This document shows positions 1,231-56,960 of a stretch of DNA of 64,000 bases, piece after piece. Position 1 is the stretch's first letter; every line of letters begins with the position of its first letter. The translations under genes and the position numbers were made by a program. The stretch is from Pelagomonas calceolata (taxonomy: Eukaryota), in NCBI GenBank assembly GCA_918797485.1, contig CAKKNE010000003.1, positions 3,286,001-3,350,000 on the forward strand, written 5' to 3'. The notes under the pieces are model-generated. The model had not been told where the DNA came from, ran no database searches, and was given only the letters and a program-made list of their open reading frames with translations.

Positions 1231-1637
1231 CGCGCAGACCTCGCTTTGAAGAGCGCTGAAACGAGCGCCGCGCGCGCGGTTTTAATTAAAGCCGCTCAGC
1301 CCAGCGGTCGACATGCATGTAGGGCTTCGGCACAGGCCGTTCTGGCCAGCCTTGATGGTCTCTGCGCGGAGTTATCGCGTGTTTTACGGAGGCGCTGAAA
1401 CGCTAGCGCGTTTACACCGTTAGATAACTGCCTCGATGTCACCCACCCCTTTTTTCGGGAGGAAAAAGGGGTAGCACCCCGAACGACGTAGGAGAGAGGG
1501 GTGGTACCCCTTTGACGACGTAAAAGAGGGGTGGGGTCTTTACGCACCAGACCTCTAGTGCACACTTAACCTCGGTAGGGGGCGCTGCGGGTTGGCGGTA
1601 GCGTGACAGCCGCAAGAGAAGCTTATAGACTGAGTGA

Positions 1638-2337
1638 ATCATGATCATCCTGATGACTCGGATCATGCCGCCGGCCAGTGATGATGATCATGATCATGAT
1701 GTTGGCGGCTCGGGAAGCGTCCGCGGTTGCCAGTGGCTTTCTGCTATCATGATGCCATCATCATCATGGCGTGACTTGGATGCATCTCAGCCATAGTATC
1801 CGAGTCCAAGTCGTCGAGTTAGGCCACTGGCACGGCTCGTAGCACGAGCCCAGCCCACTTACTTGTACGCAATCACGCGCACCGTGACGCTCAGGCTCTC
1901 GCGGTCCATACGACCTCGGCTTCTGACGGGTCAAGACCTGCGCGAATTACCGTCACGTCATTTCTGCCGGCCCGGGCCCGGGACCAGGAATCAGAGCTAA
2001 TTTGAACTTGAAGAGAAAAAGGCAAATCAAACCCTACGTCTAGATACTCTACGATTCGTTGCGGAGTGTCAAAACTGTGCTGGCTGGACGAGATACGTAA
2101 TTATTGACTGGCTCAGGCTGTCAAAGAACAGCCCGGGCCGCGGCGAATACAAATCATAGTAGTAGTAGGTGTCAAAGAACAGCGGCCAGTAGACTCGGAA
2201 CCGCGACCCCAATTAATTCTCTAAATTAACTCACTGACGGTAAGCCTGAATTACTAGGAGTGGGAGCCTGAGGCGACCCCCCCCGGGCCCGGGCCCTCAG
2301 GCTATTAACTTGAAGGGGACTCGGATATTGCCGCGGC
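1638..2337. other. Dense cluster of XY-C-rc(XY)-G-XY scars (putative transposon excision footprints)
   Basis: Matches counted by eye at 1638, 1655, 1687, 1693, 1728, 1746, 1799, 1825, 1881, 1890, 1969, 1975, 2005, 2112, 2132, 2137, 2192, 2265, 2282, 2288, 2296, 2307, 2318, 2330. Confidence 0.85.
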
Positions 2338-2520
2338 CAGTGCAGTGGTACCCGGGGCCGGACCCTTGGGATATTGGTACTTGTATTACCCGGGGTCTTA
2401 ATTCAAATACGTGGTGTGCTTGGAGACGTCCCAGTTGAACATTACAATCTCGCTAGAAATGTACTTCTGCTATGCTACGAGCTTGTACTAGTGTGTTGGC
2501 CGGCGTAGCGACTGGAGACG

Positions 2521-3864
2521 ATGCAGAGCGAGGAGGCAAGTTGTTCTAGCCGAATTACATATGAAGCCGGAGCGTACAGGTTGAGAGGGACGATAAAGAG
2601 CTCGACATCTCGAACAACGATGTTTGCACCAAGTAGACCTCAGCCCCTTATATGTATAGTTAACTCCGACGTACCAGGTACCGTGAGGCTGGAAAAATTG
2701 TCAACTTGGCGCTACACGGACTAATACTGCAAGTGAAACCAGGTGTTAAGGTTCTGGACCTGTGCAAGTTCGGAGATACTGTTATCACACAGAAATGCGG
2801 CACAATCTATCAGAAAAAAGTTAAAGGTAGAGCCATTGAGAAGGGGGTCGCATTTCCGACGTGCAATCAGCGTGCAGAAATGCCATATTATCATCAGGAA
2901 CAGTAGTTCACTTTTGTCTTGTGCCTTTTTGATAATAAATAAATCCCTACATAGTTGTGTCTCTGTGAATGAGTGTGTCTGCCATAATTCACCACTTGAG
3001 TCGGACGTTCCCGGTGACACCCTTTCATCAGGAGACCTGGTTAAGTTGGACCTTGGGTGTTACGTTGATGGATATATCGCGGTGGCAGCGCACACAATGG
3101 TCTGCGGCGAGCAGCCGTGCCCTGAGAAACCGTTATCTGGTCCTCGTGCAGATGTGTTACATGCTGCTCATATTGCCGGGGAGGTGGCAGTGAAGTTGCT
3201 GCGACCGGGAAACACAAATTCGCAAGTCACTAAGGCAATTGAGAAGGTTGCTCACGACTTTAACGTGAATGCTTGCTCTGGTGTGCTGTCACACCGCATG
3301 AAGCGGTTCGTTGTAGATGGAAACAAGGTCATTTTGCTGCGTGAAGACACCGATCAGAAAGTTGAGGATTCTTCTTTTGAACTTAATGAGGTATACTCGA
3401 TCGACATCGCCATGTCAACAGGTGATGGCAAGCCAAAAGAGATGGAGTCTCGGACCACCATTTTCAAACGGTCTGTTGATAAGAATTATATGCTTAAGAT
3501 GCGCTCCAGTCGAACTCTTTTCAATGAGATAAATGCGAAATTCCCTGCGCTGCCCTTTGGGTTGCGTTCTCTAGATGATGAGCGCCAGGCTCGCATGGGT
3601 ATAGTGGAGTGCCTCAAGCATGAATTGGTCCACCCTTATCCCGTTCTTTTTGAAAAGAAAGGTGATCATGTGGCCCACTTCAAATTCACCGTGCTGATCC
3701 TACCCAGTGGCCCTACTCGCATTTCGGGCCTGAAGCCATTTGAACTTGGTGCTGTCAAAACTGAAAAGCGACTTTCAGATGAGATTAGTGCCATCATGTC
3801 CCTTGCATCAAAGAAAAAGAAAAAGAAGAAGAGCAATGCAGCATTGAAGGCAACCTCCTGCTGA
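2521..3864 (+). CDS. PA2G4: Proliferation-associated protein 2G4 / EBP1 (inactive peptidase M24 fold); 3 introns: 2536-2579 (GC-AG), 2633-2677, 2861-2954
   Basis: Manual splicing gives MQSEE|VERDDKELDISNNDVCTK|YREAGKIVNLAL...KGVAFPT|CVSVNECVCHNSP...GDLVKLDLGCYVDGYIAVAAHT...YPVLFEK...VAHFKFTVL and a C-terminal lysine run, all EBP1/ARX1-family hallmarks. Confidence 0.93.
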
Positions 3865-4169
3865 TGAGAATCGCCGTTTTGATGGTTTTAAGCCAGTTGC
3901 TTGGTCGCTACCGAAATAACGACGCCAATTAAGACTATCAGAAAGCCGCCGGCCTGGTCGTCCGAGCGGAGCGTCTCGCCTGGCTTACTTTGACGCTGCG
4001 ACCCAGAGCCGGCTTTAGGTGGTGTACGGTGAGGAACGAGGCGGCACGTGAGAAACCACCTCCATAGACACCCCTACTAGGATGCTAATGAGATAGTAGT
4101 AACTTGAAAGGGATTTTGTATACGCTTTTTCTCCACCCCCCTCACGGAGATACTGAGTACATATCTTCC

Positions 4170-4198
4170 TTTATTTATTTATTTATTTATTTATTTAT
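4170..4198. repeat. (TTTA)n microsatellite; another at about 58946-58993
   Basis: Direct reading. Confidence 0.9.
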
Positions 4199-5576
4199 GG
4201 GTAGCTATCAATATAGGAGGGGCTTAAGCACCAAAAATCAATATAGACAGGCGTTAGTAAAGGGTAAATTTTAATATGGGGAAGCCTTAATTAAGCCAAA
4301 ATATGTCAATATTTTGCAGACACCCCCTATTTCGAGCCCGCGTGCGCGCATAAGCCCAATTTGATAAGTAGCCATATGGCGATCTCATAGGATGTCGGTC
4401 GCCGACTACACCGTATTCGGGGAGATCGTGACCGGAAGTAAAATTCTGGTTGCTGAATATCCTTCAAAGCCTGGATTTAGCAGTTGATGAGCACTGGGCT
4501 GGGCTGGACGCTCGGACGCTCGGACGCTCCGAGTCGGACGCCGCGGCGCGGACGCGCGGACGCGTGCGCGTCCGCGCACTTGGGTGCTATATAAACCCCA
4601 AAGACGCCTCTTCATAATTTGAAATTATCTCAATTTTTTTGGGGGTCCTATGCAACTACGTGACCAGGTTGTTAGAGTGGCTATAAAATAATAGTACGAG
4701 CCCCAGGTCAGGGGCCGTGCAAATCAACGAGCCCGACCCGGACCCCAAGAGAGGTACAGGGACCGCTCCGTGCCATTGGCAGACATTGCGGGCTGGCTGG
4801 TATTATGGACTGCTGGCATACATGTGGTCCAGCGCAGCCAAAGCAGCAGTTCACAACAAGGCTGCCCTAAAGCTCCTGAGGGAACGATGTTGAGCATCAG
4901 GTGTGTAGATTCAGCCGTTTCGCAGGGCTCTAGCTAGCCCTATACCTGGCCCAGCGCAGCGCCTGCATAAGATTAATTAACGACAGCCCGCCACTATAGC
5001 CATTCAAGCACAAGCAGAGCAACCTCACGATTCCCTGGGACACGACCCATTACTAGACATTGACCAGAAGGTTTGCCAGCGAACCCAGCTGGGCCGGCGG
5101 TGCAACGCGTACTGGCAGCCCCGTTATGCAATTCGTGTGGATAGTAGCGCAGTCCATAGACCCAATGATTATAGGCACGGAGCCATGATAGTTGCACGCG
5201 TAATATATATCGCAACCAAGCATCAGTAAGCCCCCCAGCTAGCGCGGCGGACGCCGCGCCCTACTATTGATGACGTTTGCGAGCCCACAAACGCTGTGGA
5301 GCCTCTATAATGCCCAAGAAGCGAAAGCACGATGCCTTAGCATTGCCAGATCGCGCGCTCACCGCGACGGGACGCTTGAACCCAGGTATCGCAGTCTCCA
5401 ATATGGTCAGGTCTTAAACTGCATATGTCAATATGGAAAGCGCTTACGTAGCATATGTCAATATGCAGAACTTCTCAAATTGACATTTGCTAGATAAGGT
5501 TTCTTATATTGACATTAATTCTTTAAGTCATGTCTATATTGATTGGTTTTAAAGACTTGTTATATTGACTATTCCC
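4199..5576. mobile_element. Degenerate TIR element (GGG...CCC ends, subterminal TCAATAT repeats), possibly PIF/Harbinger-derived
   Basis: The left end GGGTAGCTATCAATATA...AATCAATATAGACA mirrors the right end TGTCTATATTGATT...TATATTGACTATTCCC. A minus-strand peptide PIIIGSMDC near 5150-5180 resembles the Harbinger transposase GSxDC motif. Confidence 0.5.
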
Positions 5577-5825
5577 TTACAGAATCCTCCCTTTCTTACC
5601 AACTATTTAAACACAGTACGGCGTTGTGGTGAGTTGTCGGAACCGGGAAAGCGTTGACTCGGCACGAGTTATAAAAGAAGGTTCAGCTAGGATGCACTGG
5701 CAAATGGCGGGTCCGGCCGTCGTGCCGTCCAAGCCGCCGTCCCGCGAGCATCGCCGGGCGTCCTGGCGTCCTGGCCGCCCCCGCCGTCGCGTTACCTACT
5801 CATCTCACCCGTGTGTTTGAATCGC

Positions 5826-6020
5826 TCGGAGGGGATCCGGGGTTAATAGCCCGCCGTCAATAACCCGACGGGTTTTCGACTAAACCCGTTTAGTGAGATT
5901 AGCGAAAGACCCCTCAGGACGAGCGGATGGGCGCAAGCAGCCCGTTGGGCTTTTGGATACGTACAGGTGCGCCAAGGCAAGTACCAAGTCATGTGGCCCG
6001 GCGCGGCCCAGGCGCCAGTT
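5826..6020 (-). mobile_element. Partial inverted copy of MITE family B
   Basis: Reverse complement of about 36903-37095 (CGACTAAACCCGTTTAGTGAGATTAGCGAAA...GGATACGTACAGGTGCGCCAAGGCAAGTACCAAGTCATGTGGCC). Confidence 0.85.
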
Positions 6021-6369
6021 GCAGAAAATAAGTAGGGTGCGGTGGTATACCGACCCTCTGCAACGGTGTGAGTGAGTTTGGCGTAAGTGACTCCCCGTGT
6101 AATACTAGCACTAAGAATGAATGTGGTGTAAACCTTCATTACGTCAAGGTGGGACTAAGTAGGAGAGTAAGAGGGGCCTAGTGCCAGTGTAGTACTAGCC
6201 TGAGGGGATATATTCTTCGCACTCCCCCTGAACCTTGATATGGTTTGGTTTTTCTTTTTCTTTCAGTTTATAGAGTAGAGCTTCTGTGTCTACTCTATAT
6301 TGTGAACCACAAGCAAACAGTGCTTGTGTAGTTCTCGGTCGGTGTGTCTAAAGTAATTCGCGGACATGA

Positions 6370-6674
6370 TGATATTTACCAAAATGCACATTTCAATGAA
6401 ACGAACGAAAAGGATAGGGGACAATTTTCACCCCATATTCTCCTAAGGGAAACAAGAGCTTACCCTCATGAAAAGGGGGAGTGCGATAAATAGGGCGAAA
6501 TACCCCCCCTATCCTATACCCTTCCTATACACTTACATCACCCTTCAACACGCAACGCGTAATAAACACAGTTAAAACCAAAACTACTTAGTGTATTTAA
6601 GGTAGCTCCGCGGCAGACTATCTCAGCCGCCGTACTCCCAAAGGTGCGTACTCCTTTGGTCTTGCATATTCGCA
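6370..6674 (+). mobile_element. 3' end of an LTR retrotransposon: polypurine tract, then LTR 6482-6674
   Basis: AAAAGGGGGAG is followed by TGCGA...TCGCA; near-identical to the reverse complement of 21563-21875. Confidence 0.85.
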
Positions 6675-7983: not shown

Positions 7984-8234
7984 CTTCTTGTAGTACTAGC
8001 CTGCACAGCAGGTACCTATCCGCTGTAGAGAGAGAAACCTACTAGCCCATCCTACCCTAGATATGTATCTCCCACTCTCTAAATTTGAGTCTATACATTG
8101 AGTGTGTATCGACGCTACGGTGTAAACCAATTTGCTAAAAAACACTCTCGTAGTTAGGTTGGCCCAGCCTCTGGCTGGTGAGCTAGGACCCTGCTACCTT
8201 ACATAACGCTGCGACATACTCTTGCTACGCTGAT

Positions 8235-8316
8235 ACCTACGGTACCGCAGTACGGTACCTACGGTACCTACGGTACCAGCAAGTACCGTAGGTACCGTGG
8301 TACCGGTACCTACGGT
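8235..8316. promoter_or_regulatory. GGTACCTAC/GTAGGTACC array in the divergent TTL/kinesin promoter region
   Basis: TACGGTACCTACGGTACCTACGGTACC...GTACCGTAGGTACCGTGGTACCGGTACCTACGG. The same motif recurs at other gene 5' ends. Function is inferred only. Confidence 0.5.
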
Positions 8317-8374: not shown

Positions 8375-10504
8375 ATGCCAGATGAAAGTGTTAAGGTAGT
8401 TGTACGCGTACGACCGTTGTCGCGTAAGGAACAGCAAGATGGGCACCTTGCGACGACCGTGGCTGACGAAGATCAAGGCACAATAACCTGCAATAACCCT
8501 AAATCTGATATCGCAGATCCACCAAAAGTCTTTACTTTTGACGCCGTCTTTGCTTCCGGCTGCAACCAGAAATCTATTTATGATAAATGTGGAGCTACGG
8601 TAGTGGAAGCGGTACTTGATGGTTACAATGGAACAGTCTTTGCCTATGGTCAGACAGGTGCAGGTAAGACCTTTACCATGGAAGGTTTATCAGAACCCCC
8701 CGAGTTGCGTGGCATTATCCCAAATGCATTTCAACATATCTTCGACAAGGTGGCGCTCGCCGCGGAGCAACAGCACTTTCTAGTGCGCGCATCATACCTC
8801 GAGATTTACAACGAAGAGATACGCGACTTGTTGTATTTATCACGTGTCGGCTACTAATCTTTAAAATAGTTTATTTTATTCTAAAATGGTTGTGTGTAAT
8901 AGCGTCAAAAACACAGGTCCAAGGAACCAAAAAATAGATTGGATCTCAAAGAAAATGTGGACTCGGGTGTATACGTCAAAGATCTGACCTCTTTTGTGGT
9001 CAGGTCGTCTCATGAAATTGATCAAGTTATGCAGGCAGGTAAAAAAAATAGATCCGTTGGGGAGACGCTAATGAATGCTGGTTCGTCCCGGTCTCATGCC
9101 ATATTTACAATCATTGTGGAATGCGCAGAAGTAGATGAGAAGCGTGGTGAGCACATTCGCGTAGGAAAATTAAATCTCGTGGATTTGGCCGGGTCAGAAC
9201 GGCAGTCAAAGACAGGAGCAACTGGCCATCGACTCAAAGAAGCCACAAAAATTAATCTCTCACTGTCTGCACTTGGAAATGTGATATCTGCTCTTGTTGA
9301 TGGCAAGTCACAACATATCCCATACCGCGACTCTAAACTTACTCGATTACTTCAAGATTCTTTGGGCGGAAATACAAAAACAGTGATGTGCGCCAATTGT
9401 GGCCCAGCAGGCTATAATTTTGAGGAGACCATTTCGACTTTACGATATGCCAATCGAGCCAAAAACATCAAGAATAAGCCAAAGATTAACGAGGATCCCA
9501 AGGACGCTATGCTCCGTGAATTCCAGGACGAGATAAAGCGGCTCAAAAACCAGTTAGCTAACCAAGGCAACAGAAATCACAGGGCTACTATGAATGAGTT
9601 CATGCTGGAAGAAAAAGTCGTGGAGAAAATAGTTGAAGTGGAAAGAATTGTTGAGGTGCCGGGCGCAGCGACGGAGGAAGAGCTGGCTGAGCTTAAAGCA
9701 ACAGTGGATAAGGAAGCAGAACAAATGCGTCTCCGAGCTGAGGCTGAGATGAAAGAAGTCATCGACTCCCAGACGCGCACGACCAAAGAGCATGAGAAGC
9801 TACGTCAAAAACTCGATGCAGAAGCAGGTCGCGCTGCGCACTCTGAGAAGCAGCGCATTCTGTTGGAGAGGAAATTACGATCCATGCAAGAAAAACTGAT
9901 GCAGGGGGGTAGACTGTTGGATAAGGCAGCCAAACAGGAAGCGATGTTACGCCGCGCTCAGCTTGAACTTGAGGAACGTAAAGAACAAGAACAGGCCCTT
10001 GCACGCCAAGTCCGGGCGAAGGAAGAGGATGTATTTGCCCTGGAGGAAAAGTATGCGAGTAAGCAGGATGAAGCAGATGATAAGACCAGGAAACTAAAAA
10101 AACTTTGGCAGAGGCTTCAGTCGTGCCAAGCAGAAGCTCATGACGTGCAGGAGGAGTTCCAGCGTGAACGAGAGGACATGCTCGACACGATTCGTGAGCT
10201 TTCAAAACAACTTAAGCTAAAAGAGTTTCTAATGAAAAATTTTATACCCATTGGGGAGGAGCGGAAATTTGAAGTCCGTGCCACTTGGAATAACGAAGAG
10301 GAACTGTGGGACCTTGCGTGCCCCGCATTTTCTCATAGCCAACACCACTTTAAAGGGCACTGTTCTTGGTGTTCGGCCGGTGTGATAGACCTAAATCGAG
10401 ACTACACAGACGCAGACGAGCCCAGCAGCCATATACCAAATCCTTATCACAATTATGATAAAAGAGATGGAATTGCCAAAAAAGTAAGTTCATCTAAGGT
10501 TTAA
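8375..10504 (+). CDS. Kinesin-II (KIF3/FLA10-type) motor subunit; intron 8833-8916
   Basis: ESVKVVVRVRP, P-loop YGQTGAGKT, SSRSH, LVDLAGSER, HIPYRDSKLTRLLQDSLGGN, kinesin-2 neck NKPKINEDPKDAMLREFQ.EI, then a coiled-coil stalk. Confidence 0.93.
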
Positions 10505-10798
10505 AACTGAAATGAATGATAAACGCACTACTTTGTATCTCCTGCAACATGAAATATATATACTACTTATGTCTTGGACGGTATGCTGCAGTCTATTACA
10601 CTCGTGGCTCATGTTGCAGTATTTGAGCTGTCTGAACCGCCGGCGAATAATTGCAAGCTGGAGCTGGTGGTCTAGTGGTTTTAAAAGAAAACATACGGCA
10701 ACGGAAATGAGCCGAGGTCGGCCGAGTGGCTAGGCGGTCCTGGCTAAGCAAAGCAATATTACTAGTACTACTCCTCCCCGGTACTACCGGCGTGACTC

Positions 10799-11122
10799 CT
10801 AAGGTGCAATTTACGTGGGAAAAACGCGCAAACTACGCGTAAAGCACCGCTACAGGAGATCCGAGTCCCACTGGCACGTAAAAAACGGCGTAAAAAAGGA
10901 GCCGAGCCAATCGCTAGTTTTATGCTGTTGCGAGGTGCGTACTCTAGGTGTGCGCTTGCGCCGTACTCTAGGTGGCCACCAAGGCCTCGTTTAGTCGCTC
11001 TGCTGCGTATGTGCGGGTTTTACAAATAATTAAAAAGCCCGCGTAAATTGCGCGTAAAACACGCGTAAATTTACGCTGGACCGTTTCTCACGTAAAAAAC
11101 GCCGCACGTAAATTGCACTTAC
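10799..11122. mobile_element. MITE family C (hAT-like, degenerate 8-bp TSD)
   Basis: TIR CTAAGGTGCAATTTACGTG / CACGTAAATTGCACTTAC; flanks CGTGACTC / TGTAACTC (6 of 8 match). Paralogs at 43417-43868 and 23071-23230. Confidence 0.8.
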
Positions 11123-18329: not shown

Positions 18330-18750
18330 GACTAATTTGAGATTCGAGTTCCCAGCCACTGGCACTTGTGTTCCGGCAATTTCGGATACGGGCCCCAAAG
18401 AGTCCCTTTGTACGCCCCGAGACAGGGCTGGGGGAAAGGGGTCACTTTCGCGTGCCCAAATGGGCCTAACGTGCGGACTTAGCCTAACTTGCGGGTTTTC
18501 AGGATGAAAATAAAACCTCGCTTCCATGCTGGTAATTTGGTCTCCCAGGGGGCCTCGGTACCTATGGCGTGGGGAAGATACGTAGGCGCGGCCGGGTACC
18601 CGATGGGCTGCCAGATAGGTCGCCTGACGTGGCACGAAACGCCACCATGACTCCGATTCAGGCTGGCGACGTTCGCAGGCCACTAAAGTCGTTTCGCCCG
18701 CCCGTTTCGGTCACGTCCCAGAGGGGTACCTAGGCCCCCCTGGCTCGACT
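18330..18750 (+). mobile_element. MITE family D/E copy
   Basis: CTAATTTGAGATTCGAGTTCCCAGCCAC is shared with 21437 and, inverted, with 25443 and 59311. GGCCTAACGTGCG...TTAGCCTAACT.GCGGGTTTTCAGG is shared with 30867. Confidence 0.8.
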
Positions 18751-19349: not shown

Positions 19350-20981
<1,632 letters not shown>

Positions 20982-21562: not shown

Positions 21563-23055
21563 TGCGATTATGCAAGACCAAAGGAGTACGCACCTTTGGG
21601 AGTACGGCGGCTGAGATAGTCTGCCGCGGAGCTACCTTAAATACACTAAGTAGTTTTGGTTTTAACTGTGTTTATTACGCGTTGCGTGTTGAAGGGTGAT
21701 GTAAGTGTATAGGAAGGGTATAGGATAGGGGGGGGGGGGTATTTCGCCCTATTTATCGCACTCCCCCTTTTCATGAGGGTAAGCTTTTGTTTCCCTTAGG
21801 AGAATATGGGGTGAAAATTGTCCTCCATCCTTTTCGTTCGTTTCATTGAACTGTGCATTTTGGTAAATATCATCAGGTAGCACATGGGCATTTGCCTCTC
21901 AATGAATACACTTAATACTACACAGAAGAATTGGTAGAGTGTTCTGTAGATTGTTTTGTGGTAGGTCGTGGTGGTCGTAGTTCGTGGTAATGTAGCGTTG
22001 AGATGTCGAATAATTAGCAATCATTTGGGCCACCATAAGAGCTAGGAGCTTCATTAGGGTCAAAGCGTACCGCACGTCTCACTTGTGGAGTACGAGGAGT
22101 CGTACTAGGAGAAGGTGCGTCAGGCTCATTGAGTTGCTTCTCGAGAATGCGGAGAGCATATCTGTGTAATGGATCACTCATGCCTGCTATTTCAATCCGC
22201 TGACGCTCCTGAGTGGCGACAATGTGATCTAAAGCGATCATAACTACTTGGGTATATGAAGTTCCATCTCCTTTCTCCTCGTCATCTTGTGTTTCAGTCC
22301 ATACAGGGCCCGCTTGAGCTTAACAGTTGTGTGAAGCTTGCCGTCGGTGTCCCGTTACCTTATACCTTTGGGTAGGTCCATATATGACTGCTTTGAATCA
22401 AGATCGGACTGAATAAATGCTTGCGGAATATCGGAGTGCTTGATCGGGAAGCTACCCATCTACTGTCGTCGATATCCTCGGGTGCGTCTAAAATATCATT
22501 CAATGGCTTAGGAAGTCGTTGCAATTTGGACCTCCCTTGTGCGTTTTGACATCTAAAAAGACGACCAGCAGCTTGTACAGTTGTGCACTCATTATGTCAA
22601 ATTGTTCCTTTGTACAAGTGTTGCCAAGATTTATTGACCTCTTATAGCCATCCTCTTCATCCTGATCGGGATCGAGAGGCCAACCTGGAGGTGTCTCGGT
22701 CTGCAACCTAACAAATCTTGAGAATTCAGGTAATCTCTCTCTCACATTCTATGGCAAACGCGGTTCTCCAGAGAATGCCTCTTCTGAGGGCATAACCGTG
22801 TGGAGAAGACTGACATTTTTCTATGTTCGATATGTAGCTTTGACCAGGTTTGCAGATTGCGACATAGTCTTCTGATATCTTTGCTCTACGTGCGCCGGCA
22901 GAATGTTCCTTGAAGTACTTAATGAGCTTGGGTAACTTTTGCCAGTTGCAACCCAAGAAGTATAACATTCTTCTCGTATAAGTTTCTGTCTCGATACCAT
23001 TATCACTAACAAAAAGTGCAAGATGAGGATCTTTGTCCTTAGTTACTAGTTTCAA
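21563..23055 (-). mobile_element. Decayed Ty1/Copia LTR retrotransposon (3' LTR 21563-21760, PPT 21761-21771, RT remnant near 22360-22450) inserted into a MITE
   Basis: TG...CA LTR with 5-bp inverted ends. Minus-strand peptide IKHSDIPQAFIQSDL..SYMDLPKG matches the Copia RT D...AF...L...YM..P.G motif. Confidence 0.8.
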
Positions 23056-34687: not shown

Positions 34688-34814
34688 GCTGTCCTGCTGA
34701 ACTGAACAAGAAGCGCAGCACTTACACTAGTACCGTAGGAGGTACCGTAGGTACCTGCGTACCGTACACTCATACACTCATCTGCGGTGCCTGTTCTACG
34801 GTGTTGCCAGGCAG

Positions 34815-36070: not shown

Positions 36071-36769
36071 TCAACTTTTAATCCTGTGCAAGGTAGGCCA
36101 AGGAAACGTAAGACTCTACTAAGAGTGAGTTTGTGGAAGTCTGAGGGGGTCCTGGGCATCTTCCAACGGCAAGCTAAGGAGCGGACTACGGTGACTGCTC
36201 GCCGCGATCCAGATATAACCGCTCCCTTAGCTGATTGCGGCGCTTCCGAAAATATAACCGCACAAGGGAGTCTGTTATTGTTGTAGCTAGCCCGGACCAC
36301 TCCTGTCGGCACCGCCTCGTGGGTCTTGCCTCTCCCAAGTATCTCAGCTTCAACTTCTCCCAACTTGGCAATGTCGTGGCGTGGCTGATACTGGTAGTCA
36401 TGCGCGGTAGTGCGGGTAGACCACGGATCCTCCCAGGTCAGACTTTCGACTGCCACCCGGCGTGCAGCGTTTTGGTGCGTTTTAGGCGCGGAGGGCAGCT
36501 TTCGGACGCAAAGCGGCGGCTCATTGCTAAGTGCAAAAAAAAAAATAACTTGATGCGACGTAGCAGGCGTCCGAAACCGAACTCTTCACTGTCACGTTCC
36601 GCCACGAAGACTCAATAACGTCCCCCCAAAAACCCGCAATCGGCGAAAGCTCCCCGGCAGAGGAGGAAAAAGGTAGTATGAGCTACTCCACCGTGACGGT
36701 TACCTGCCCTCAGATGTGAGAGACGTACACCTGTCTTGCTACTTCTGCTTCTAGGTACGTCCCACTGGG

Positions 36770-37144
36770 CTAGGTTGGCACTTACCCGAGGGGTTATTAA
36801 CCCCAATCGTGGCCCGGGGTCAGTAACCCGGGTAATTACCCGTTAGTACGGGTTATTAACCCCGGGATCTTATAGAGGGGTAGGGGGAGGGGGGCTCACG
36901 GGCCACTGGCGCGGGCCTGGGCCGCGCCAGGCCACATGACTTGGTACTTGCCTTGGCGCACCTGTACGTATCCAAAAGCTCAACGGGCTGCTTGCGCCCA
37001 TCCGCTTGCCCGGAGGGGCCTTTCGCTAATCTCACTAAACGGGTTTAGTCGAACCCGTCGGGTTGGGCGGGTACTAACCCCGGATCCCCTCCGAGGGGTA
37101 ATGATAGGTTAAAAACGGGTAATTACAGGTAAGTGCCAACCTAG
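36770..37144. mobile_element. Intact 375-bp hAT-like MITE (family B) with perfect 8-bp TSD
   Basis: TIR CTAGGTTGGCACTTACC / GGTAAGTGCCAACCTAG; TSD CCACTGGG at 36762-36769 and 37145-37152; internal GGGTTATTAACCC motifs. Confidence 0.92.
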
Positions 37145-37512
37145 CCACTGGGAGATGTGGAACTTGGAATTTACATGCTGGAATGTGCGGAACTTGGGTT
37201 CTTGCGAAATCCGGCCACTCGGGCAGCGGGGTGCGCGGACGCCAAGGTTGCGCGCCATCAATAGTGTCCGACGGGGCCGGGCCAATGTTGCTGAAAGCCG
37301 GGTAAGGTAAGCTAGCGTCTCCTTAATGACTCCATCTATAAGCTGTCGTCTTAACCGCCATTGCTTCAAAGATAGATACCCCTAGCAGCAGCGTCATATG
37401 TATCAGGCGGCCTGGATCTATCAACCGGATATATTTTATTTACTTGGTGACGGATACTGCCGTAGTGACACAAAGTTCACATAAGTAGCTGCACTAATCA
37501 TGGTGGTCTGTA

Positions 37513-40386: not shown

Positions 40387-41673
40387 CACCAAGTCCCGGC
40401 GTCGATACAAGCGTAAAACCTAGTACTAGTACTAGGGGCACTTTAGGTCCGGGTTTTGGGGCCCTGGAGGACGGCTAGCCGCGTTTTTCGCGCGGATTTT
40501 TGTACCGAGCCCTGCACCGGGTCGATTACGACCCCGCGGAGGTGGTTTGGGGCTGGGGGCGACCGCCTCTGATTTAAGGGAATTTATTTCGTGACGAAAA
40601 ATGGCCTCGGGATGGGCAACGGTACACTAAATCGACCCGAGGTGAGCCCTTAGCCCGCGGGATAGCTCCGATGACACCCGGCGATGGCTGAAACGGCCAT
40701 ACCCGCCCAGGTGGGGAGGGGTGGCGTGCGGCCCGGCAGTAGGCTTATCGGCTCGGGGTTCGTGACGGGAACAAGAACTTGCACCCACAGCCACAGCTCA
40801 ACAGAAGCACCCTCGGGGACCACATAGCTTCCCCGCTCCTCGGGCGTGTAGGAGACCATTTCAAAAATGTGAATTTTGGCCGCTTGTTCGATGGCTTTTG
40901 CGGCTCCAGCGCGGAGTCAAAACGCGAGAGGCCCGATCCGGGCACGATTCCGCCGGCTAGAGGGACACATTCGCTCGAGGGGGATGGCGGTCACCGACGG
41001 TGGGGAGCTCGTAACGGCGGATAACGGGGGCGACAATATTTTGGCTTTCCACGCCATCGCCGCGATTCCCATCAGGAAAGCCTCAACCAACTCGAAAGGT
41101 CACCACGCGGTGGTATGAATAGTATCGATGCGCGGGGTACCGCGTTTTCGACCAGGGTGCTGCTACGTGGCTTTCCAAAGCCTCGACAGAAGCGCCGCAC
41201 AAACGCTTCGCGCCGAGCGTCGCGACCTGCCCATCGTCGGTCGTGTCCATTTTCCTACAGCGCAGGTTGGCGTCATCGCTGAAACACCCCTGAACACCCC
41301 ATCTCGCGTCTCGAGATCGTAATCATGGTAATGCTAAGCTGCTGGTTTTGGCGTGCTGGTGGTCCGTGGCGCTGCGGTTGGTTCTCTCTTTCTCGGCAGG
41401 GCTGCGCGATGCAGGGTGAGCCGCTATGTACTCACATCTCTCCTAATCGTCTACGCTGGCCAGCACGCAGCGTTTAAAGACGAAATCGGGCCATCCAGAG
41501 CTCGTCTCGACGCGAGAGCCGATTCGCGCAAAGGAGCTATAACTTTGCGGAGGCGTCGCCGGAGCCCGTCCGACAGCCCTCGAGGCCTAGGGGGAGCTAT
41601 AGTCTCGTTTTCCTTTTGTTTGCTAAACCTGTTTTGTCTTAAAGTGCCCCTACTAGTAGTAGAGCCGGTGTGG

Positions 41674-42147
41674 TTGAGTGATGGCTAGGTTGCAGGTTGC
41701 AGGTAGACTACGGCAGGTACCCGAGGTTGTAGATTTCGAACGCGCGGCCACTTTTACAAAGCCGGAGAAACGCGGCCTGGAGAGGCGCCGGCTAAACATC
41801 ATGGAACGGGCTCCAATTCGCTTGCGTCGTGGAAACTCGTGCCGTTCGGGGCGGTTGCGCTGGCGACTCCAATTTCGCTTTTTTGACGACGTCGAGCTAG
41901 AGAATTTCCGGCCGACGGCGCGAGGCCTCTATAACGCAAGACTAGGTAAGTGAAGAATGAAGCCCTTGTGCTCATCAGATAGCCGCCTTGGACCGGTGTC
42001 CGTTCGCGTGCTTCGCCTCCCATTTGACAAGCGACGTTTCGCCCTTAGGCCCGCTATACTTTAAAAGCGGCAGCGCGTTCAAAACCCATAACCTCAATTA
42101 CCCGCCCTAGTCTTCCTGCAGCAACCTGCAACCTAGCCATCGCTCAA
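41674..42147. mobile_element. Foldback/MITE with ~90-bp imperfect TIRs; no TSD found
   Basis: TTGAGTGATGGCTAGGTTGCAGGTTGCAGGTAGACTA...GAACGCGC.GCC.CTTTTA versus the reverse complement of 42060-42147. Confidence 0.8.
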
Positions 42148-42161
42148 AGATGATGGAAAGT

Positions 42162-43397
42162 CACTGGCAGGCTTATTAGTACTAGTAGAATACCGCCAAG
42201 GGACAGCAACCGTCACGGTGACTTGAGTTGAACGTGCCAGCAGGCCAATAATATGACCCTGCAAAGAGAGGCGTCAGGAAGACCTCAAACCTCGCAAATC
42301 TCCTGGGTTATTTGGCAGTTCCCTATCCTATCCTATTGACCTACGCAACCGCAGGACCTAGATCACCGTGAGTCCGTGACGGGCCCGTGGGCATTTAAGA
42401 AATTTGGTACTTCGGCGATCCCACAAGGAGTCCAAGTCGTCACTTCGGGGTTTAATTCAAGCCCGCGGCCCGGAGGTCGAAAATTGGGTCCTTGAGTTTT
42501 GTTTCCCCGGCTTTCTTAAGCTCAGGCTGCCGCCGGCGGTGTCACGGTCGGCAAGGCTGCCCTGGGCCCTAAGGGTCTTCAAGTTTGGTGGTCCAAAATT
42601 ATGCACGCCATCTCAATCATGATGATTCCTGAATTATTGTTCTTTGCATTGTTCACTGTAGACAAATCAGGAAGCCAACATAGTTCGAGTTTTATTGGCT
42701 TGACTAAAACAAAAGAACCGACCGGCGTGACCAGCCTGAATTGCAACATCCCAAACAGACGGAATCAGCTTTCAAGGAGCTTATCATGATTGTGTGGGAT
42801 GAGCATAGCCTCAGGCTGAGCAATCTGAATGAGTGCAGATATAATAAAGATAAAAACATAACGTGAATATGCCACTCATATCAGCAACTTGAACTTGAAC
42901 TTGAACCACAGAAGTATTTAGTAGCAAAGCCTTCCAAGCCTGAGTCCTCTCCGAGTCTCAGTCAGGTCGTTCTTACGCTTTGGCGGGTGGACTCGGAGGG
43001 GTCGGTAAGTCCAAGGTCAAAAATGTTGTAAGAGCCATAACTTCCATAACTTGAACTTGAAGAAAAAAAGCACTGGCACCTCAGGCCAGAGTAGTTCGAG
43101 CTTCATCAACTGGCGCTTCTTGATGAATTCGAGTCACAGAAACTCAGGATAAAGTAGCCAAGAAGCGCGCAAGGCCGCGTCTATTGTACTAAAGCCTGAC
43201 TCGCCGCCGCCGGCGGAGGGAGCTGGTAACTTGAAACCCCGCCTCCGGGCCACAAACTTCCGATTCGTAAACTCTGTAACTCAGGCTAATCATTTTTTTG
43301 TCAAAACATGCGCGATTATTTTTGTCAAAACATAGTGGGATGTGTTCGCACGGCCCAGGCCGAGAGGATCACATTGCACGTATTTCAAGTTCAAGTT
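42162..43397. other. Second dense cluster of XY-C-rc(XY)-G-XY scars
   Basis: Matches at 42162, 42180, 42212, 42521, 42531, 42541, 42578, 42616, 42783, 42810, 42886, 42892, 42898, 42937, 42950, 42990, 43048, 43054, 43071, 43208, 43228, 43280, 43384, 43390. Confidence 0.85.
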
Positions 43398-43416
43398 ATG
43401 GATGATGCAAAGAGAC

Positions 43417-43868
43417 CTAGGGTGCGATTTACGTGGAAAAAACGCGTAAGTTACAAGTAAAGCACCGCTACAGGAGATCCCACGTAAAAAACGGCGTAAA
43501 AAAGGAGGTATCCAAAAGTCCTTCCAGGGCTCCCGAAGCCGGCGCTAGCAGCCCTTTTAGACACTAGCTCGCGATCAGCACCTCGCAGAGTGTGGCTGCC
43601 CCAAACGTTGTCAGAGCCGAGCCAATTGCTAGTTGCATGCTGTTGCGAGCAAGGTGTGCACTCTAGGTGTGGGCTTATGCGCCGTGCTCGTGCTGCTATT
43701 GAACTGCGTGGCCACCAAGGCCTTGTTTAGGCGCTCTGCCTGCGTGTGTGCGGGTTTTATAAATAAATGCACGCGTAAATTACGCGTAAATTGCGGCGTA
43801 AATGACGCTGGACCGTTTCTCACGTAAAGAACGCCCCGGGCCGGGGCCGTGCGTAAATCGCACCCTAG
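43417..43868. mobile_element. MITE family C, longer copy
   Basis: Perfect 17-bp TIR CTAGGGTGCGATTTACG / CGTAAATCGCACCCTAG. Contains about 120 bp absent from the 10799 copy. TSD not clean. Confidence 0.85.
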
Positions 43869-55892: not shown

Positions 55893-56960
55893 GGAAGCCA
55901 GCGCGATCGTTGGCTGTTTTCGCGTCCCCGAATCTCCAACACCGTCTTACATTACATGCCAATATAGTCGAATAACCATCGAATATTTAATTCTCCGGGT
56001 CCGGCTACCTACGCACCGTTGGTACCTACGGCCCGGTTACCATGGTACCTACGGTACCGTGGGTACTACCTACGGTACGGTAAGGAGCTACACCTACAGA
56101 TCTTACCTCCGATACCTACCATAATGCCGTACGGCAGCGTGTTATGCAGCCGATGAGAATAATGGTACAGAGAATATCGTGACGAGTATATGCGTTAAGT
56201 TGTTTTCGTCTACGCGGGATATCCATCCACTCGTGCTAAAAATTAACGAGGCGCCAGAGGAGCTCTCCTTGAGGCCCTCAATGCCAAGAGAAAACCATCA
56301 GTTGGAACCAGGGCCGCTTGGGACCGCGGAGTTCTGCTCAAAAGATGCTGGGTCCTTGTTACAGCTCTTGGATCTTCGGCGCACCCGGGACTCGATAGCA
56401 CATTCGATGGGGGAGACACTGGCATACAATGTGCCGGCTCCTAATCGTGCCAGCTGTCCCCCAGCTCTGGCGGTCATTGAGGCAGAGGTCTCGCGCGTTG
56501 AGGCCAGCATTCAGGGAGGGCTTCGCAAGGTGTGGCTGGGACAGCAACAAGCATGCAAGACTTCCGGCCCATCACATGGGACTTACCCCTTGTGCGGGCC
56601 CGGCGGCGACGTCTGGGTGTCGGCCGCAATGACGTCGCGAGCGGCGTAATTGTGGGGGGCGGGGTGTGGGGGCGTATAGAGGGGCAGATCACAGGTCAAT
56701 ACAAGCGCTCGAGCACCGGTGCGCGCAGCAAGCGTGCGCAATAGAAGACCTCAGATGTGTGCAGGTGGCGCTTGGAGCCGAGGCAAACCGCGAGGCGGAG
56801 GCAAAACTTGCTCTTGCTCGCGAGCTGACAGCTGCGCACACAGTTTGTTGCTGTGTGGTACACTTAGGTCTTGTTATGAAAAACCTAAATGTAGGCAGCA
56901 CTCATACAAGCCAAGGCGCACACGCAAGAGACCCAGGATAAGTGGGACTCATACTCGCGC

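Follow-up and report, generated by a model that had tools for sequence, protein, structure and literature searches.

Six-base insertions that follow a palindromic rule in noncoding DNA of Pelagomonas calceolata are probably footprints of transposon excision

Results

The DNA analyzed here (the window) is a 64-kb stretch of the Pelagomonas calceolata genome that has a GC content of 51% and carries kinesin and separase genes; the closest named relatives of its DDX5-type helicase (positions 19836 to 20978) are found in pelagophytes, including Aureoumbra (82%) and, in a cluster with 90% identity, a member that carries the taxon label unclassified Pelagophyceae. Each P. calceolata chromosome has been described as containing one region of 52% GC, taken to be centromeric, within a genome of 63% GC, and these low-GC regions are rich in MCM and kinesin genes, and are reported to show no accumulation of repeats or transposons (PMC9481584). 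The window probably lies in such a low-GC centromeric region. It was compared with seven alleles (L001 to L007), which are orthologous loci from metagenomic consensus contigs, three of them from one assembly. In the orthologous alleles, the GC content drops from 57 to 68% to 45 to 50% about 3.5 kb upstream from positions 1638 to 2337, and this step lies just past a gene that is, from our reading of its sequence, presumably MCM-like. The step is sharp in L002 (5900 to 6100) and L006 (5900 to 6200), from about 62% to about 47%, and apparently marks where the low-GC region begins. Positions 1638 to 2337 themselves form a noncoding spacer upstream from a gene of the Peptidase_M24 family, and a candidate transposable element (positions 1 to 1560) adjoins this spacer on its left side.

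The spacer is a hot spot for 8-mers that obey a single rule, XY-C-rc(XY)-G-XY, in which XY is any dinucleotide and rc(XY) its reverse complement; we refer to these 8-mers as scars. We counted 26 exact matches in the spacer (23 if overlaps are disallowed), close to the 24 given in an earlier note on this DNA, while shuffles that preserved 2-, 3-, or 4-mers (1,000, 500, and 500 shuffles, respectively) gave means of 0.2, 0.6, and 1.3 and a maximum of 5. The whole window holds 123 matches versus 16.9 to 18.8 expected, with a maximum of 30 in any shuffle (60, 30, and 30 shuffles for 2-, 3-, and 4-mers). All 16 rule words are present in the window in 4 to 13 copies each, and 12 of the 16 occur in the hot spot; as that note had held, the enrichment spans every dinucleotide rather than one or two. 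Among the 12 most overrepresented strand-collapsed 8-mers in the window, 5 are rule words. For all 16 dinucleotides the inner pair is the reverse complement of XY, i.e., palindromic to the flank in the manner of P nucleotides, so that each half of a scar is an odd palindrome whose inner pair is set by the target. TA is the target in 8 of the 123 scars, and the inner letters change with the target.

The choice of C and G as spacers is equally specific. The C/G pair leads the 16 possible spacer pairs (123 matches), followed by G/G (59), G/C (40), and C/C (31), and the remaining pairs are mostly near chance in the window, with T/G (28) slightly higher; the specific enrichment of C/G spacers, required by the original proposal, is borne out. 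Half of the G/C matches (20/40) share the register of a C/G scar, which marks them as by-products of tandem scars, and triplet runs at self-complementary XY make up 48 of 90 G/G and C/C matches; the other 42, of which 13 are in register, are only partly accounted for. The base just outside a scar is C on a slightly raised fraction of strands (0.33), and both a preceding C and a following G are found in 15 of the 123 scars. A 3-bp analog of the rule has four matches in all versus about one expected. Decay of scars at CpG is not evident as a class (26 C>T changes at CpG versus 23 C>A and 32 C>G).

Outside long open reading frames (ORFs), the window contains 119 scars in 37.6 kb, a mean of 3.2 per kb, and inside them 4 in 26.4 kb, where 6.4 are expected under an approximate ORF mask; frame preservation therefore plays no visible role. 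The scars are strongly clustered, with 13 in each of three 500-bp bins, and exact scars take up 143 bases of the 700-base hot spot. The description of the motif as a frame-preserving scar that saturates intergenic DNA was, on these counts, overstated in both respects. A second dense cluster, with 24 exact matches, lies at 42162 to 43397, and a further hot spot with nine matches is seen at 6001 to 6500 of L002, by the GC step.

Comparison of natural alleles showed that the rule describes insertions as well as words. Fourteen pairwise alignments yielded 156 indel keys, among which six-base indels (21 keys; 20 sites, one of them counted twice) outnumbered five-base (5) and seven-base (4) indels. 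Sixteen of the 20 six-base sites fit the rule exactly, as was predicted for polymorphic six-base indels, 2 fit with one mismatch, and 2 are off rule. Four of the 16 exact sites are changes in the number of tandem units, which slippage could produce; the other 12, none of them a tandem duplication, represent 6 of the 10 strand-collapsed dinucleotide classes. The chance of fitting the rule is 0.0009 for a random insertion of six nucleotides, 0.038 for a random deletion, and 0.056 for a tandem duplication. Deletion between 2-nucleotide microhomologies fits most often (78/355 = 0.22), and even under this null the probability of at least 16 fits among 20 sites is 6e-8.

In and around the hot spot, the polymorphic sites include a near-rule scar at AG with one mismatch (1627 to 1634), missing from L001, L004, and L006; the scar GACTCGGA (1655 to 1662), whose empty allele is GA; tandem AT scars (1687 to 1700), one unit shorter in haplogroup B; and a TC scar array (1799 to 1812) of one, two, or three units depending on the allele, with one mismatch, at a CpG, in the second unit. 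The scar CCCGGGCC (2132 to 2139) is a recent gain, present in the window and represented by CC in all seven alleles. Downstream of it lie CTCAGGCT (2296 to 2303; empty allele CT), GCCGCGGC (2330 to 2337; empty allele GC), and, outside the hot spot, AACTTGAA (4101 to 4108). Two polymorphic half-scars of three bases, AT-C-AT (2153 to 2157) and TA-G-TA (4255 to 4259), were also found. At 1727 to 1732, the window is without 24 nucleotides that are found in all seven alleles, and these missing nucleotides are made up of nested scars and lie between TGCCAG repeats. Farther downstream, the 4164 to 6670 spacer is almost wholly different in L001, L002, L003, L005, and L007, with kilobase-scale replacements and deletions between flanking genes that are 98 to 99.9% identical.

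The alleles fall into two haplogroups, one with the window, L002, L005, and L007 and one with L001, L004, and L006. L003 is a mosaic across the whole locus, which would mean either that recombination took place in a region supposed to be poor in it or that the contig is a chimera of assembly. Nine of the 16 exact sites could be polarized, either because only part of one haplogroup carries the scar or because a paralog is without it, and all nine are gains, with no losses; the remaining seven differ only between haplogroups or between two alleles and were left unpolarized. Across 1625 to 2470, 30 substitution alleles were counted among the seven alleles at positions away from gaps, versus 8 six-base and 2 nontandem three-base indels of footprint type, and all noncoding intervals aligned to the window give 130 substitutions versus about 12 six-base events; these ratios are rough, given that metagenomic consensus contigs were used and that a single assembly supplied three of them.

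Contigs from independent sequencing runs told the same story. Relative to the window, X8, X9, and X18 have 6-bp indels at 1655, 1686, 1798, 1803, 2131, and 2296 (among the 12 of 14 indels listed), and X8 differs in 1625 to 2470 by a single substitution and 45 gap letters, while X2 is identical to the window over 1522 to 4157. The recurrence of the motifs in the contigs of these four runs and in the seven metagenomic ones excludes an assembly artifact. X18 was tried as an outgroup and dropped; it carries haplogroup B substitutions and was therefore left out of the polarity calls.

Scars have also arisen inside repeat copies. A CA scar at 18357 to 18364 lies within a repeat copy (at 18332) of which three paralogous copies are without the scar, and two adjacent scars, TC and CA, occur at 10860 to 10876 within the copy at 10798 to 10901. 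The latter pair documents a stepwise gain: neither scar is present in the paralog at 43416 to 43507 or in L001 and L006, one is present in L002 and L005, and both are present in the window. In alignments of older paralogs, the rule fits only one of four six-base gaps.

Among 23 three-base indels, 7 are tandem duplications, 1 is a homopolymer change, and 11 do not have the form XY-N-XY; in each of the other 4, XY is self-complementary and N is C or G (AT-C-AT, GC-C-GC, TA-C-TA, and TA-G-TA). This pattern consists of four cases noticed after the fact, and 11 of the 16 nontandem three-base indels fit no such formula.

The element to the left of the hot spot is a candidate donor, a nonautonomous element of CACTA type at 1 to 1560. 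Its right end, CTCTAGTG, occupies 1553 to 1560 and is followed by CA, and its left end probably lies about 90 bp before the window. L002, L003, and L005 carry a 92-bp version, CA-CACTAGAG...CTCTAGTG-CA. The candidate terminal inverted repeat (TIR), CACTAGAG/CTCTAGTG, is 8 bp long with CACTA/TAGTG ends; subterminal repeats lie at about 1429 to 1545, with GGGGT(G)G/TACCCC units recognizable by eye at about 1445 to 1545, and an inverted arm pairs 19 to 42 with 1429 to 1452. These features suggest membership in the CACTA/CMC clade. The flanks are CA and CA in L002, L003, and L005 and TA and CA in L001, L004, and L006, and the right end is deleted in L007; all of these represent a single site, at which a 2-bp flank match has a 1-in-16 probability by chance. 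No empty allele of this site was seen among the window and the seven alleles. Inside the element, a 138-bp segment is duplicated (806 to 943 and 1106 to 1243), with a similar short minus-strand peptide in both copies for which we found neither a Pfam match nor a protein homolog.

A transposase with DDE and C(2)C / H(3-4)H motifs, as expected of an autonomous partner, was not seen in the window. None of the 7 scanned ORFs of the candidate donor had a Pfam match, a homolog search with its 93-amino-acid ORF found none, and a Pfam scan of 67 ORFs of the window returned no transposable element family, in line with the earlier remark that no transposase is visible there; among the rows listed from the P. 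calceolata annotation, the sole transposase match is Tc1-like. De novo scans of the window and the alleles for TIRs with target site duplications (TSDs) returned mostly chance pairs and missed the element with the 8-bp TIR, which was found by a CACTA-directed scan. Two repeat families were rejected as donors: the one at 36762 to 37153 has an inverted repeat starting with C and the one at 41666 to 42155 also starts with C, but a 2-bp TSD was seen for neither. The latter is a decayed inverted-repeat element whose right end, TGATG, is the terminus given for PlavakaB (PMC12730594). A very high-copy short element at about 8026 to 8233, which reaches a summed depth of up to about 200 times single copy in X2 and is missing from L001 and L006, might be read as having an AT duplication and C...G ends, but these ends lie inside TA-centered arrays and are ambiguous, and it was left uncounted.

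Other repeats share the locus. An array of TA-centered units (TA-CC/GG-TA and TA-CCG/CGG-TA) at 8234 to 8316 represents a separate, second process, and further TA-unit arrays, also with TA-CTGCGG-TA, lie at about 34730 to 34760 and 56030 to 56070 and at 8575 to 8700 of L001; they are polymorphic among alleles. CCG is the commonest filler of TA-NNN-TA (17/135), and these arrays resemble piled-up Tc1/mariner footprints at TA hot spots. Inverted-repeat elements at 40434 to 41651 and 43420 to 43865, with GGGGCAC...GTGCCCC and GGGTGCG...CGCACCC ends and flanks of TA (or ACT, or CTAG), belong to other superfamilies, and TA scars lie beside the former. A TG...CA-ended repeat, about 310 bp long and present in two copies that are 96% identical (6364 to 6674 and 21563 to 21878), showed no target duplication, and an insertion specific to L003 (6234 to 6776), with broken frames, gives the impression of a non-long-terminal-repeat retrotransposon fragment.

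Discussion

Six-base insertions that convert XY to XY-C-rc(XY)-G-XY differ between natural alleles of P. calceolata, and the mutational process behind them is real, active, and rule governed. We consider it likely that the 8-mers are excision footprints of a cut-and-paste transposon of CACTA/CMC type with C...G ends and a 2-bp TSD. Target-dependent odd palindromes are, by analogy with known systems, the expected signature of opened flank hairpins. The hairpin and CMC reading proposed earlier has gained from the formula-bound insertions, the +3 products, and the adjoining CACTA-ended element, the identity of the enzyme still being, like the excision chemistry and the identity of the element, something that we infer.

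The following sequence of events would produce the scar. The element would insert at any dinucleotide and duplicate XY. At excision, a nick made by the transposase in the nontransferred strand, one base into the element, would allow the 3'-OH of the flank to attack the opposite strand at the junction, leaving each flank sealed by a hairpin with the terminal C of the element in the loop. A host nuclease might then open each hairpin two bases 3' of the loop C, and the resulting 3' tails, with rc(XY) and XY at their ends, would pair over two bases, with fill-in and ligation completing the scar. Because these tails can pair, a single outcome would be expected to dominate. Where XY is its own reverse complement, one tail could pair instead with the XY of the other flank to give a +3 product, XY-C-XY or XY-G-XY, and the hairpin model predicts such products only there. 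Repeated hits on some spacers could generate the tandem and nested scars. The simplest source of the fixed C and G would be the terminal base of the element itself, left on the flank; the fact that C precedes a scar on just 0.33 of strands, with both a preceding C and a following G at 15 of the 123, indicates that they are not copies of flanking bases.

The proposed chemistry has relatives. In Ac/Ds, the flank hairpins are described as being opened off center to give odd palindromes, with joining often over microhomology; the footprints are of 28 types, and a few can dominate, two of them making up 35 and 18 of 128 in Candida (PMC5873905). The scars resemble hAT products in their odd palindromes and, if they are hairpin derived, in joining over microhomology and in the dominance of few outcomes, but in hAT the base in the loop is described as complementary to that of the flank, with varied outcomes (PMC5873905), whereas here the center is fixed as C/G regardless of what flanks it, the target duplication measures 2 bp, and a single outcome dominates for all dinucleotides in natural populations; a center complementary to the flanking base was not found. 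Flank hairpins, opened by host enzymes, are likewise a feature of the MULE Muta1, for which they are shown in vitro, and are cited for hAT, Transib, and RAG; excision of Muta1 in yeast is more than 90% precise, and an element base left in the loop is not described for Muta1, Transib, or RAG in the parts of that source used here (PMC5499845). CMCT elements have mostly CA..TG termini and TSDs of 2 to 5 bp and have catalytic motifs in common with Transib/RAG1 (PMC12730594), which makes hairpin chemistry plausible for this clade. CACTA elements are defined by CACTA/TAGTG ends and subterminal repeats (PMC7139988), both of which the candidate donor has, as CACTA/EnSpm elements do, although its TIR of 8 bp is shorter than the 10 to 28 bp quoted for plant CACTA elements (PMC12730594, PMC7139988).

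The TA-centered arrays in the window resemble the footprints of the Tc1/mariner superfamily. Tc1/mariner footprints consist of TA, terminal element bases, and TA. They are similar to the scars in combining a TSD with terminal element bases and unlike them in having a fixed TA target, fixed inner letters, and no target-dependent palindrome; neither a fixed TA target nor fixed inner letters were found for the XY-C-rc(XY)-G-XY scars. Our literature search found no report of this footprint rule, either for the CACTA/CMC clade or for pelagophytes, in a search that scarcely covered older work on En/Spm and Tam, where single footprints of this kind are possible. As evidence of novelty, this search is weak. 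Flank hairpins are known from other transposons; the stereotypy, the rate at population level, and the testable cleavage geometry would be surprising.

Several other origins were weighed. A selected protein-binding motif or a sequencing or assembly artifact might be suggested by the confinement of scars to noncoding spacers near gene starts, but 16 unrelated words follow one formula, exact +6 insertions occur even within repeat copies, and the observations were reproduced across independent runs and assemblies; the indel data refute this origin, and we give it practically no weight. Processes without any transposon, namely, replication slippage, fold-back template switching, or microhomology-mediated deletion of old sequence, are also very improbable. 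In their favor are the tandem unit changes at 4 of 16 exact sites, the 7 tandem duplications among 23 three-base indels, and the loss of 24 nucleotides between TGCCAG repeats in the window, which shows that microhomology-mediated deletion does occur here. Nevertheless, duplication does not describe 12 of the exact sites; template switching requires a C before XY to complement the base after rc(XY), and the observed frequency of 0.33 excludes it; and deletion fails against the nulls, is at odds with nine gains at nine polarized sites, and leaves the origin of the motif unexplained. A slippage-type origin is therefore largely refuted, while expansion of tandem units by slippage is plausible.

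A transposon that also forms hairpins but belongs to another family or has another geometry, for example, hAT-like with a longer C-XY-G target or with G...C ends, would agree with the Ac/Ds palindrome, whose center is described as complementary to the base that adjoins the element (PMC5873905), and with the slightly raised frequency of C just outside the scar. With such a C-XY-G target, however, every scar should be preceded by C and followed by G, and the 15 of 123 found exclude it; the empty alleles at polymorphic sites mostly have no such flanks, the 3-bp analog of the rule is at four matches versus about one expected, and a G...C-ended element would presumably become one terminal base shorter on the transferred strand with every cycle. 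We regard this geometry as improbable, if slightly less so than an origin without transposons. Unlikely, yet the most serious of the competitors, is a hairpin-type scar without a stably inserted element, in which a domesticated or roaming transposase or a host nuclease makes a break with a 2-nucleotide stagger, or an abortive integration is instantly reversed; a C would be added or left at each end, the ends hairpinned and then repaired. This idea fits an excess of about 100 scars in a 64-kb window that offers one doubtful donor, the concentration of scars in a few spacers, and a transposase unseen in the window, as well as the finding that no filled allele was present at any of the 20 polymorphic six-base sites in the window and seven alleles, which are short-read contigs. 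Against it, filled alleles are undersampled in such contigs, since they break at inserted repeats; an element end of C...G type adjoins the hot spot; and the duplication of XY plus a nontemplated C on each side would have to be supplied separately, whereas a C...G element with a 2-bp TSD gives both at once. We therefore favor excision of a C...G-ended, CACTA/CMC-like element over these alternatives.

The excess of scars over recognizable donors, about 100:1 in the window, means that such a donor model demands very short residence of the element. It is tempting to go further and to propose that a hit-and-run CACTA/CMC transposon is among the main writers of new intergenic sequence in the low-GC centromeric regions of this picoalga, which is abundant in the ocean, leaving one stereotyped scar per 3 to 10 point substitutions, with copies that barely persist and a cleavage geometry so far undescribed for the clade; this wider proposal is tentative, and we regard it as somewhat doubtful. 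If it is true, scar counts would provide a genome-wide map and a clock of past transposition. Laboratory studies usually follow footprints at one marked locus at a time; a single formula such as this can be tallied throughout a genome and in wild populations, so that earlier transposition may be mapped and dated even in places from which every element has gone. From the formula also follows a sharp, testable prediction about where a CACTA/CMC transposase cuts and where the host opens the hairpin. If the reading of the scars as footprints is right, visits by transposons would be a major source of new intergenic sequence in Pelagomonas.
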